Source of the DNA: Spirochaetaceae bacterium
GTDB lineage: Bacteria > Spirochaetota > Spirochaetia > DSM-27196 > SKKC01
NCBI GenBank assembly: GCA_046542845.1
Contig: JBKHAN010000011.1
Span: forward strand, 2,537 to 66,536
Length of the DNA stretch: 64,000 nt
Reading direction: 5' to 3'
Under the pieces are notes generated by a model. It was given only the letters and a program-made list of their open reading frames with translations, made no database searches and was not told the DNA's origin. The translations under genes were made by a program, and so were the position numbers. Positions 4,856-8,219 of the stretch are shown piece after piece (within the stretch, counting starts at the first letter, position 1; each line of letters begins with the position of its first letter).

Positions 4856-6615
4856 ATGTCTTCCCGCGTTTCGATTTTTCCTTGTATAAACGACACGGCG
4901 TCTTCCAGCGGAGTGCCGTCCTTCTTGTCCCCCGTGCGCACTCGTATACTCACGGTCCGTTCTTCTTCCTCGCGACCACCGACAACGAGCATATAGGGTA
5001 CCTTCTGCTGTTGCGCGTCGCGAATTTTTGCGTTCATTCGTGCGTCCCGCAGATCAGCATCCACCCGGATCCCCGCTTCTGCAAGTCTGTTCTTCACGAT
5101 GCGCGCATAATCGTCGAACGCAGGCGCGACCGGAACCACGACTGCCTGCACGGGAGCGAGCCACACGGGAAACGCCCCTCCGTAGTGCTCAACGAGGACT
5201 CCAAAGAAGCGTTCGAGCGAACCCAGCAACGCCCGGTGAACCATGAAGGGTCGCTTTTCCTTTCCGTCGGAGTCGACGAAGGTCATGTCGAAGCGTTCCG
5301 GCAGGTTGAAGTCGAACTGAATTGTCGACATTTGCCACTCGCGTCCGATCGCGTCCTTGAGCTTCAGGTCGATCTTGGGTCCATAGAACGCGCCCCCGCC
5401 TTCATCCATCTCGTATTCGAGTCCGGCTGCGTCAACCGCGTTTCGGAGGCTTTCGATTGCCGTCGCCCAGTCCTTCTCCTCGCCGACGCTTTTTTCCGGG
5501 CGCGTCGCGAGGTAGGCCTTGATGTCCGTGAACCCGAAGGCGCCGAGCATGTCGAGACTGAACTGGAGCACGGTCCGTATCTCGTCTTCGACCTGTGACG
5601 GCGTGCAGAAAATATGAGCGTCGTCCTGGGTAAATCCCCGCACCCTCAGAAGCCCGTGCAGAACGCCGCTGCGCTCGTAGCGGTATACTGTCCCGAGCTC
5701 CGCCCACCGCAGGGGAAGTTCCCGGTAGCTGCGCATCGAGGTCTTGTATATCAGAATATGGAACGGGCAGTTCATTGGCTTGGTGTAATACTGTGCGTTG
5801 TCCATTTCCATGGACGGAAACATGCCCTCACTGTAGAAATCGAGGTGCCCGCTTGTCTCCCAGAGCCAGCTTTTTCCGACATGAGGCGTGTAGAGAATCT
5901 CGTATCCCCCGGCGACATGCTGTCTGCGCCAGAAGTCCTCGATCGCCAGACGGATTCGAGCGCCTTTCGGGTGCCAGTAGATTAAGCCGCTCCCCGCTTC
6001 CTCGTGAGTCGAGAACAAATCAAGTTCGCGCCCGACCTTACGGTGATCGCGCTTTTCCACTTCGGCCAGATGATCCAGGTGCGTCCGTAGCTCTTTTGGG
6101 TTTTCCCAGGCGGTACCGTAGATCCTCTGCAGCATGGGGCGTTTCTCGTCTCCGCGCCAGTACGCCCCCGCGACATTCAGAAGCTTGAACGCCTTCGCGT
6201 GTATCTGTTTCGTGTTCTCTACGTGCGGGCCACGACACAGGTCTACGAAACTGTCGACGGTATACAGAGAAACTTCTTCGTCCTCTGGAATTGCGTCAAT
6301 GAGCTCAAGTTTGTAGGGCTGATCGGAGAAGCGCTCGCGGGCTTCATCGCGGGTTACCACGGTTTTTTCAAAGTCGTGCTTCTCGGCGAGGATGTCCCGC
6401 ATGTGCGATTCAATTTTCTCCAGATCGTCCGGAGTCAATGTCCGCGGCAGGTCAAAATCGTAATAGAAGCCGTTGTCTACAGGCGGCCCTATCGCAATTT
6501 TTGCTTCGGGAAACTCGCGCAACACCGCCTCGGCCATAACGTGTGCGGTAGAATGCCTGATCCGGTACAGGCGGTCCTCCCGGCTCAACTTTTCCGATGA
6601 CACAGTCGTACTCAT
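4852..6615 (-). CDS. thrS: Threonine--tRNA ligase (no N-terminal TGS domain)
   Basis: RIRHSTAHVMAEAV is the editing-domain HxxxH. The class II core and anticodon-binding regions run throughout (YGPKIDLKLKDAIGREWQMSTIQFDFNLPERF). Start moved from 6720 to ATG 6615, which has GGAGGA 7 nt upstream. Positions 6616..6720 hold leader terminator elements. Confidence 0.93.
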   Translation of the reverse strand: MSTTVSSEKLSREDRLYRIRHSTAHVMAEAVLREFPEAKIAIGPPVDNGFYYDFDLPRTLTPDDLEKIESHMRDILAEKHDFEKTVVTRDEARERFSDQPYKLELIDAIPEDEEVSLYTVDSFVDLCRGPHVENTKQIHAKAFKLLNVAGAYWRGDEKRPMLQRIYGTAWENPKELRTHLDHLAEVEKRDHRKVGRELDLFSTHEEAGSGLIYWHPKGARIRLAIEDFWRRQHVAGGYEILYTPHVGKSWLWETSGHLDFYSEGMFPSMEMDNAQYYTKPMNCPFHILIYKTSMRSYRELPLRWAELGTVYRYERSGVLHGLLRVRGFTQDDAHIFCTPSQVEDEIRTVLQFSLDMLGAFGFTDIKAYLATRPEKSVGEEKDWATAIESLRNAVDAAGLEYEMDEGGGAFYGPKIDLKLKDAIGREWQMSTIQFDFNLPERFDMTFVDSDGKEKRPFMVHRALLGSLERFFGVLVEHYGGAFPVWLAPVQAVVVPVAPAFDDYARIVKNRLAEAGIRVDADLRDARMNAKIRDAQQQKVPYMLVVGGREEEERTVSIRVRTGDKKDGTPLEDAVSFIQGKIETREDI

Positions 6616-6649
6616 ACCATATTCCTCCGGTATGTCCGTGCCGGTACAC

Positions 6650-7026
6650 AAAAAAACCCGGGCATCTTCGTCGCACGGCGCCGTAATGACCGGGAGCTCC
6701 GCGCTCCAGCACATGATCAAAAACGATTCCGTAAGGACGAAATTGCCCGGGTTTCCCGGTTATTCCGCGGTTCCACCTTACTTCAGACGCAGCACGAGCG
6801 ACTCCGCACGCAGGCATCTGCTCTTTATTACACCCGTTTCGTGGGATAAACGGCCCGCCTACGCAATAGCGACGTGTACTCGTACGCTATCTTCGACCGG
6901 CGGCTCGTGAGTGGTATGTACCATGACGGAGTCAGGTATCTTCCAGCCAGGTGCAGATGCCTGCACGGGATACCCTCTCTCTATGACCCGTTTCATGGAC
7001 ACGTGTCTCAGTCTACGCCCGTTACC
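6650..7026 (-). promoter_or_regulatory. T-box-type tRNA-sensing leader of thrS (antiterminator, competing terminator, Stem I-like helix)
   Basis: On the minus-strand RNA, GUAAGG-UGGAACC-GCG ... CGU-CCUUAC (6781..6731) reproduces helix A1, the 7-nt UGGNACC bulge and helix A2, and matches the T-box consensus GGUGGNACCGCG. CCCGGGCAAUUUCGUC (6751..6736) can instead pair with GACGAAGAUGCCCGGG (6672..6657), which is followed by U7 (6656..6650). A Stem I-like helix spans 6998..6921, with AGAGAGAG at 6982..6975 and an ACC (Thr) triplet at 6937..6935 on its 3' side. Confidence 0.6.
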
Positions 7027-7032
7027 AGCGGA

Positions 7033-7062
7033 AATATGGCCGGACCAACCCTTTTTTGTCAA
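7033..7062 (-). promoter_or_regulatory. Candidate sigma70-type promoter for the thrS leader
   Basis: TTGACA (7062..7057), an 18-nt spacer, then CATATT (7038..7033) on the minus strand. Confidence 0.35.
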
Positions 7063-7130
7063 GAGACACGGGCTGGGACCTCGACCCGGGGGCCCCGCGT
7101 TTACTACAATCGTATACAAGGAGCGAAACT

Positions 7131-8219
7131 ATGAGCAGACCAACGGTAGCCGTCTTTGACACAAAAAGTTACGACCAGCAATTTTTCAACATGACCAATG
7201 CCGACTACGGGTTCGACTTGCGATATTTCGAGTTTCGCGTGACCAAAGAGAATGCGGTAGTGACCGAAGGTGCCGATTGCGCATGTGTTTTCGTGAACGA
7301 TCAGGTCACCGCGGAGGTCGTCGACGTGTTCGCCGACCGCGGGGTCAAGCTCCTTGCTCTACGGAGTGCGGGCTATAACCATGTCGACCTCGAGGCCCTC
7401 CGAGGCAGAATAGATATCGTCAGGGTACCGGCATACTCGCCGCACGCGGTTGCCGAACACGCGCTTGCGTTGATGCTGACACTGAATCGCAAGACCCACC
7501 GGGCATACAACAGGACACGCGACAGCAATTTTGCCATAGCGGGCCTCATTGGCTTCGATATGTATCAGAGAACGGCGGGGATTATCGGGACCGGACAGAT
7601 CGGACGCATAATGGCCGAGATACTCCGTGGTATGCAGATGCGTGTGGTCGTCTATGACCCGTATCCGAACAGGGAATGGGCAGCCAAGTGGGGTGTCGAA
7701 TACGTCAAACTGAGCGAACTGTACCGGCAGAGCGACATTATAAGCCTTCATTGCCCGCTGACACCCGAGAACGTCTACATGATTAATCGGGCGTCTATAG
7801 AGCAGATGAAACCGGGTGTCATGATAATCAATACCGGCCGGGGCAAGCTGATTCGGACAGAAGACCTGCTGGAAGCCCTCCGCTCCGGCAGGATTGGATC
7901 TGCCGGTCTGGATGTGTACGAGGAAGAGACACACTATTTCTTTGAGGACCATTCTTCGAACATCGTGACCGACGATAATCTGCTGCGCCTTCTCGCGTAT
8001 CCAAACGTCCTGGTTACCGGCCACCAGGCCTTCTTTACGAAGGAAGCGCTGACCAACATCGCCGGAGTCACGCTGGAGAACATACGGATGTACTTCGACG
8101 AAGGACGCATCGAGAACGGCGTACCGGATTTCGATGCGAAGACCGGTCGACTGAAAACCGATCAGAAGAAGGAAAAGCAGGCGGACACGTCGAGTAGCGA
8201 CAATCCGAAGGACGGCTGA
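7131..8219 (+). CDS. ldhA: D-lactate dehydrogenase (D-isomer-specific 2-hydroxyacid dehydrogenase)
   Basis: Start moved to ATG 7131, with AAGGAG at 7118..7123. Recalled similarity to E. coli LdhA runs end to end (VFDTKSYDQQFF, ALRSAGYNHVDL, GIIGTGQIGR, SLHCPLTPEN, GHQAFFTKEAL). There is an extra Lys/Asp/Ser-rich ~30-aa C-terminal tail. Confidence 0.9.
   Translation: MSRPTVAVFDTKSYDQQFFNMTNADYGFDLRYFEFRVTKENAVVTEGADCACVFVNDQVTAEVVDVFADRGVKLLALRSAGYNHVDLEALRGRIDIVRVPAYSPHAVAEHALALMLTLNRKTHRAYNRTRDSNFAIAGLIGFDMYQRTAGIIGTGQIGRIMAEILRGMQMRVVVYDPYPNREWAAKWGVEYVKLSELYRQSDIISLHCPLTPENVYMINRASIEQMKPGVMIINTGRGKLIRTEDLLEALRSGRIGSAGLDVYEEETHYFFEDHSSNIVTDDNLLRLLAYPNVLVTGHQAFFTKEALTNIAGVTLENIRMYFDEGRIENGVPDFDAKTGRLKTDQKKEKQADTSSSDNPKDG

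Follow-up and report, generated by a model that had tools for sequence, protein, structure and literature searches.

The window analysed here, a 64,000-nucleotide stretch of Spirochaetaceae DNA (contig JBKHAN010000011.1, positions 2,537 to 66,536), contains a T-box riboswitch on its minus strand, in the leader of thrS, the gene for threonyl-tRNA synthetase (ThrRS). The element is very probably a class I (transcriptional) T-box specific for tRNA-Thr(GGU) that controls the sole threonyl-tRNA synthetase gene of its host. This assignment is carried by the sequence and structure elements of the leader, by their conservation and covariation among relatives, by a matching tRNA, and by two folds that exclude one another. 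With charge sensing taken over from the family, we regard the leader as a real and almost certainly functional T-box, whose mechanism is ordinary and whose host is not. Firmicutes are the textbook home of T-box riboswitches, and the thrS leader is an added member of this known family in an under-reported phylum. An earlier reading of the sequence alone (the original prediction) had proposed a T-box antiterminator/terminator switch in the thrS leader; the proposal is supported, and the elements that it listed are present, some of them with the amendments described below.

Comparison of the window to Rfam using cmscan in E-value mode shows that the T-box model RF00230 matches positions 7024..6730 of the minus strand over model positions 1–219, which is its full length, with a score of 47.6 bits and an E-value of 2.3e-9. 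This is the one T-box match in the host genome (3.15 Mb, a 91% complete assembly). Matches of the Rfam families sbcD RNA (E 1.5) and HIV-1_SD (E 7.5) were set aside as chance.

Relatives of the element were sought by running RF00230 against 41 genomes that belong to the same GTDB order. In 22 of them it has a single match, scoring 29–98 bits, and all 22 leaders precede thrS. The sequence AAGGUGGNACCGCGG is invariant in every one of them. Compensatory changes are present in Stem I, the Stem IIA/B pseudoknot, the antiterminator and the terminator. For Stem I, 94.5% of cells are paired across the 22 leaders, as against 35–46% when the partners are slid, and 14 of the 19 pairs change on both sides; none of 500 shuffles scores as high. 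The antiterminator behaves similarly, with 95.6% of cells paired (46–60% with slid partners) and 7 of 13 pairs changing on both sides. Conservation of the bulge and helices in related thrS leaders had been named in advance as a test of the T-box assignment; both are kept in the 22 genomes, with compensatory changes.

The Specifier is a threonine codon followed by a purine, and the gene downstream encodes ThrRS. The ACC triplet is invariant in all 22 leaders and is complementary to the GGU anticodon of the genome's tRNA-Thr. The original prediction had tentatively drawn Stem I at 6998..6921; its AGAGAGAG and its ACC triplet are both present, although the stem is larger than was drawn and extends over 7019..6902. 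Both the AG bulge and the distal-loop motif are found at the level of sequence, the platform itself being predicted, and the AGAGA of the bulge is near-invariant across the 22 leaders. From established T-box structures, the AG bulge would form one half of the platform that contacts the tRNA elbow. We note that the distal loop of Stem I carries an additional hairpin, GUGCAG-GCAU-CUGCAC (6966..6951, minus), immediately 5' of GGCUGGAAG; an insertion of variable length is present here in 13 of the 22 related leaders and absent from the remainder.

The conserved 14-nt T-box sequence is present together with an antiterminator that contains the 7-nt UGGNACC bulge. Helix A1, the bulge and the cap hairpin lie exactly where they had been predicted, while helix A2 has seven pairs and not the three first noted. 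The antiterminator fold has a predicted stability of −20.6 kcal/mol (z −2.2). Three tRNA-Thr genes were identified in the genome by ARAGORN, with anticodons GGU, UGU and CGU, and all three have a U73 discriminator, so that the expectation drawn from the UGGA of the bulge, a U73 in tRNA-Thr(GGU), is borne out. The U73-C-C-A end of tRNA-Thr is complementary to UGGA, and pairing at the variable base is Watson-Crick in the window. In nearly every genome of the order a tRNA-Trp(CCA) gene follows that for tRNA-Thr(GGU) (C67 13242-13456 in the host; loci L103-L120 elsewhere), and neither gene encodes its 3' CCA.

The second fold is an intrinsic terminator. A 16-position helix between 6751..6736 and 6672..6657, with one A.A mismatch and one G.U pair, is followed directly by U7, as had been predicted; the part described at that time as a loop of about 60 nt is an extension of the stem, giving an imperfect hairpin of about 100 nt. 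Its fold has a predicted stability of −49.4 kcal/mol (z −4.2), a value that no shuffle out of 200 reaches. The weaker hairpin with U5 that had also been proposed, at 6743..6719, does no better than chance: its −4.0 kcal/mol (z −0.4) is equalled or surpassed by 59 of 200 shuffles. The 17 nt at 6752..6736 belong both to the 5' strand of the terminator and to the 3' half of the antiterminator; the two folds are therefore mutually exclusive, and reuse of the antiterminator 3' half by a competing terminator is the arrangement found in T-boxes. A long terminator that reuses the antiterminator 3' half and abuts a U-run is present in at least 15 of the related leaders. Terminator strands covary among the relatives: duplexes of a strand with its own partner average −30.7 kcal/mol, compared to −20.3 ± 4.9 kcal/mol with partners from other families.

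Between Stem I and the T-box sequence, cmscan aligns Stem II, the Stem IIA/B pseudoknot and Stem III. RNAalifold predicted no structure for the Stem II–III region, which aligns poorly among the leaders, and Stems II and III are for that reason placed by the Rfam alignment only. In place of RNAalifold, pseudoknot pairs were specified by hand and counted on the eight leaders that share this layout. In this small sample 90.6% of cells are paired, versus 14–38% with slid partners, and the compensatory variants of IIB include CAUCC/GGAUG, CGUCC/GGACG, CCGCC/GGCGG and CGCCC/GGGUG. The coordinates of all of these features are collected in Table 1.

Table 1. Features of the thrS leader and gene in the window (position 1 is the first nucleotide of the window).
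Feature	Position	Strand	Basis
Promoter, sigma-70-type: TTGACA (7062..7057), 18-nt spacer, CATATT (7038..7033)	7033..7062	minus	10 of 12 consensus matches
Stem I	6902..7019	minus	cmscan alignment; RNAalifold and pair counts on 22 leaders
Stem I basal helix GGC/GCC	7019..7017 with 6904..6902	minus	
Stem I helix UGAG/CUCA flanking the Specifier loop	7010..7007 with 6911..6908	minus	
Genus-specific 4-bp helix GUGU/ACAU	7002..6999 with 6919..6916	minus	minimum free energy folds
AG bulge of Stem I, AGAGAGAG	6975..6982	minus	aligned to AGAGA of the model
Stem I distal helix GGUAUC/GAUACC	within 6902..7019	minus	
Stem I distal-loop motif, GGCUGGAAG	6940..6948	minus	near-invariant in 22 leaders
Specifier codon ACC (Thr)	6915..6913	minus	placed by the Rfam model
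Conserved purine A after the Specifier	6912	minus	
Stem II region with GAA ... GUA elements and an inserted internal hairpin	6853..6903	minus	cmscan alignment
Stem IIA/B pseudoknot	6831..6852	minus	IIA placed by cmscan; pair count on 8 leaders
Pseudoknot IIA, CGU/ACG	6852..6850 with 6842..6840	minus	
Pseudoknot IIB, loop UAUCC/AUCCC with GGGUG	6848..6843 with 6835..6831	minus	
Stem III, CAGAUGC/GCGUCUG, 23-nt loop	6820..6814 with 6790..6784	minus	cmscan alignment and complementarity in the sequence
Antiterminator	6731..6781	minus	cmscan, folding, pair counts on 22 leaders
Helix A1, GUAAGG/CCUUAC, 6 bp	6781..6776 with 6736..6731	minus	
Conserved 14-nt T-box sequence, AAGGUGGAACCGCG	6779..6766	minus	
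T-box bulge UGGAACC, 7 nt	6775..6769	minus	
Helix A2, GCGGAAU/AUUUCGU, 7 pairs	6768..6762 with 6743..6737	minus	
Cap hairpin CCGGG-AAA-CCCGG	6759..6747	minus	
Intrinsic terminator, imperfect hairpin of about 100 nt	6752..6657, then U7 at 6656..6650	minus	folding
Shine-Dalgarno GGAGGA, 7 nt before the ATG at 6615	6628..6623	minus	sequence and folds
thrS, threonyl-tRNA synthetase, 587 aa	4852..6615	minus	Pfam tRNA_SAD, tRNA-synt_2b, HGTP_anticodon

These elements suggest the following mechanism, in which tRNA binding, charge sensing and termination are as established for the family. Transcription would start near 7026 from the TTGACA/CATATT promoter, and Stem I would then present ACC for pairing with the GGU anticodon while the AG bulge and distal loop contact the tRNA elbow. 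With uncharged tRNA-Thr, the free U73-C-C-A end would pair with the UGGA of the 7-nt bulge, which would stabilise the weak antiterminator (−21 kcal/mol) and allow RNA polymerase to read through into thrS. On charged tRNA-Thr the amino acid would block this pairing. Without the antiterminator, 6752..6736 would pair with 6672..6657 to form the terminator of about 100 nt with its U7, and transcription would end about 35 nt before the start codon, ahead of the ribosome-binding site.

Several observations weigh against this assignment. The cmsearch with RF00230 that had been suggested as a check gives a significant, full-length match with the Specifier and bulge placed as foreseen, but its 47.6 bits fall short of the curated cut-off, a gathering score of 93 bits in the release used. 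At gathering thresholds the whole window returned zero Rfam matches, the T-box appearing in E-value mode only. The Specifier loop of the window also lacks the S-turn (loop E): ACGUG and ACAU stand where AGUA on the 5' side and GAA before the codon are expected, and in the window's genus (four genomes) a 4-bp helix occupies its place. Furthermore, the variable base of the bulge does not covary with the discriminator across the order. Half of the 22 leaders (11) have A and the other 11 have U, and since the discriminator of tRNA-Thr(GGU) is U73 in all 20 order genomes with a readable 3' end, the 11 UGGU leaders would face a U.U mismatch. Finally, a simple terminator scan did not find the thrS terminator, which is atypically long and exceeds the loop limit of the scan.

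The gathering score of RF00230 is a curation threshold rather than a biological feature. One consequence of falling below it is that the T-box would be missed by routine annotation. Much of the deficit probably stems from the helix that stands in for the S-turn, and two lineage-specific structural quirks probably push the leader below the standard database threshold.

The S-turn of the Specifier loop is highly conserved among T-boxes and is believed to hold the codon in place for pairing with the tRNA. Other genera of the order retain it in canonical form, with GAGUA on the 5' side and GAAA before the codon. Within the window's genus the helix that replaces it covaries (GUGU/ACAU, GCUG/CGGC, GUGC/GCAU), and the Specifier loop has shrunk to about 4 × 4 nt (ACAC / ACCA), compared to about 7 × 8 nt elsewhere in the order. 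The S-turn is not universal in the family, as actinobacterial ileS T-boxes present the Specifier differently (PMC7778990).

As to the discriminator, TBDB lists a Watson-Crick pair here for most T-boxes and wobble pairs as exceptions (PMC7778990). Two accounts of the UGGU leaders were considered and ruled out. An A73 in the genomes that carry them is contradicted by U73 in every genome, and descent from a donor with A73 is contradicted by the thrS T-boxes of Chloroflexi, which read UGGA. This last finding indicates that UGGU is derived within the spirochaetes, and the persistence of UGGU leaders despite an invariant U73 suggests that this lineage may hold less strictly to the textbook rule for pairing at the acceptor end.

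The sub-threshold Rfam score, the loss of the S-turn in the window's genus and the discriminator mismatch in half of the order's leaders would also be expected of a decaying T-box relic, still recognisable yet unresponsive to tRNA, with thrS expressed constitutively or by read-through. We consider this very improbable. The four genomes of the genus all retain every functional element, and neither ACC nor the 14-nt T-box core varies even at family-level divergence. The compensatory changes in the helix that replaces the S-turn imply selection on structure. A terminator of −49 kcal/mol before the sole thrS would, moreover, be lethal without a mechanism of antitermination.

It is also conceivable that the leader acts on translation, by sequestering the ribosome-binding site or the start codon as in actinobacterial ileS leaders. 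Four relatives in the order have thrS T-box leaders without a U-run terminator: L005 (G025), L007 (G017), L009 (G027) and L015 (G034). In L005 and L007 the strand just past A1, UCCUUAUG[A/G]CAUAC, could base-pair with GUAUGUCUGAGG in the region of the start codon, although the regions compared overshot the start codon. Translational (sequestrator) T-box variants may therefore exist alongside transcriptional ones in the same order. For the window itself a translational switch is highly improbable: the competing helix abuts U7, a hallmark of intrinsic terminators, and GGAGGA and the ATG lie 22–40 nt further downstream and take part in neither alternative fold. A chance resemblance, or control of thrS by other means such as the operator autoregulation by ThrRS known from E. 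coli or leader-peptide attenuation, has only the score below the Rfam cut-off in its favour and is effectively refuted by the match to RF00230 over the whole model (E 2e-9) and the strong covariation of four separate structural elements, Stem I and the antiterminator among them, by a codon and discriminator that match the host tRNA, and, for attenuation, by a leader in which no frame holds a Thr-rich leader open reading frame (ORF).

A transcriptional T-box for tRNA-Thr can be compared most directly to the thrS and thrZ leaders of B. subtilis, which are class I transcriptional members of RF00230. The regulated gene, thrS, is the same. Both have a Stem I with a Thr Specifier, AG bulge and distal loop; Stem II, the IIA/B pseudoknot and Stem III; the 14-nt T-box sequence with its 7-nt UGGNACC bulge; and an antiterminator that competes with an intrinsic terminator and U-tract. 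The window leader differs in that its host is a spirochaete and not a Firmicute, with one T-box per genome, in the 4-bp helix that stands for the S-turn in its genus, in the terminator hairpin of about 100 nt (that of B. subtilis is compact), in a bulge that reads UGGA to match U73, and in scoring only 47.6 bits.

The nearest thrS genes that carry a T-box are those of Chloroflexi (Anaerolineae, Ktedonobacterales and Bellilinea; L026-L030 and L038), whose leaders stand before the same type of ThrRS, without a TGS domain and 56–62% identical. They share with the window leader a T-box directly upstream of the gene, an ACC Specifier and a UGGA bulge, but they score 80–99 bits, have a canonical S-turn and end in short compact terminators.

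There is precedent for lineage-specific additions of this kind. 'Stem Sa' of staphylococcal glyS T-boxes is an insertion of 25–50 nt in the terminator/antiterminator domain that is hard to detect with standard tools and is functionally important (PMC9177973). It sits within the antiterminator domain, whereas the additional 60 nt or so in the window lie between the 3' strand of the antiterminator and the 3' strand of the terminator and lengthen the predicted terminator. Actinobacterial ileS T-boxes, such as those of Mycobacterium and Nocardia, are likewise outside Firmicutes, present in a single copy per genome, in control of one aminoacyl-tRNA synthetase gene, and non-canonical in their presentation of the Specifier (PMC11297988, PMC7778990). 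They are translational, however, with a shortened Stem I that carries the Specifier in its terminal loop and without an intrinsic terminator, whereas the window leader has both a full-length Stem I and a terminator.

The distribution of T-boxes among spirochaetes was examined at two levels. In a sample of Spirochaetota, 11 of 301 genomes have any T-box match at an E-value of 1e-4 or better under stricter filters, which indicates that T-boxes are sporadic in the phylum. Among 100 thrS loci of the same ThrRS type, T-box cores upstream of the gene are confined to the spirochaete order and, outside the spirochaetes, to Chloroflexi (Dehalococcoidia excepted), whose leaders score 37–99 bits with Rfam. 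A tree of ThrRS places the spirochaete sequences in one clade (Shimodaira-Hasegawa-like approximate likelihood ratio test, SH-aLRT, 100), separate from Chloroflexi and only adjacent to the branch of T-box-bearing Anaerolineae, with a weak backbone. Three members of the spirochaete clade, L024 and L025 from Spirochaetaceae metagenome-assembled genomes (MAGs) and L080 from a Treponemataceae MAG, lack a T-box core in the upstream sequence examined (up to 900 nt), and for L024 and L025 Rfam was likewise negative. The presence of such members inside the clade means that the leader has been lost from, or was never present in, parts of it. We set aside the tree as proof of a transfer from Chloroflexi because its backbone is too weak to decide; thrS and its leader may have passed between Chloroflexi and spirochaetes in an ancient transfer, or may have been inherited vertically over a long time with losses.

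Earlier surveys give little indication of T-boxes in this phylum. An in silico survey in 2008 reported none in six spirochaete genomes (PMC2494555), and the text of the TBDB papers makes no mention of the spirochaete phylum and ascribes T-boxes beyond Firmicutes, Actinobacteria, Chloroflexi and Deinococcus-Thermus to horizontal transfer (PMC7778990). Within the searchable literature library, no paper pairs 'T-box' with 'Spirochaetota'.

A broader reading, which we offer tentatively and regard as possible rather than probable, is that the thrS T-box is an old, vertically kept module of the whole spirochaete order and no recent stray import, present once per genome on the sole TGS-less thrS. It would then have diversified in ways undescribed for Firmicute T-boxes: a Specifier loop without an S-turn and closed by a Watson-Crick helix in the window's genus, terminators of about 100 nt, probable translational derivatives in other families, and a tolerated U.U at the discriminator in half of the leaders. 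If so, the order would be a natural series for learning which T-box features tRNA decoding requires.

Apart from its history, a conserved and covarying thrS T-box across a spirochaete order widens the known range of the family, and the gathering score of Rfam hides most of these leaders, with only 2 of the 41 order genomes above it. The swap of S-turn for helix within a genus amounts to a natural mutant of the presumed codon-positioning feature, and this swap and the UGGU/U73 mismatch of sister families are cheap test cases for T-box structure and function. The element also accounts for the 400-nt thrS leader in the annotation and predicts that thrS expression would respond to the charging of tRNA-Thr.

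The TTGACA of the thrS promoter is kept in 21 of the 22 related leaders, and from the end of the promoter at 7033 a transcription start near 7026/7025 is likely, upstream of the whole element. A search of sequencing runs for the stretch yielded none of RNA. The GGAGGA ahead of the ATG at 6615, noted at the outset as the ribosome-binding site, is present, and it and the ATG lie downstream of the terminator and outside both alternative folds. Pfam gave no TGS match in the N-terminal part of ThrRS, and tblastn of the host assembly revealed no second copy of thrS, which is single-copy. Short TGS-less forms of ThrRS are common to Chloroflexi, the Planctomycetes-Verrucomicrobia-Chlamydiae (PVC) group and many other lineages in the list of related loci. 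Back to back with the thrS promoter is a promoter-like sequence, TCGACC-18-TACAAT (7081-7110, plus strand), that would serve a divergent 2-hydroxyacid dehydrogenase gene listed at 7056..8219; the listed ORF overlaps the thrS promoter, and its true start is thus probably downstream of the listed TTG.

The host itself had been suspected of being a spirochaete, and its gene content bears this out. FlaA, the family of periplasmic flagellar sheath proteins, has three matches in the genome and none in any of 14 control genomes, and on this sequence evidence the host is a spirochaete. The closest named ThrRS sequences are from Spirochaetaceae MAGs, and DNA of the host was found in runs of metagenome DNA from microbial mats.

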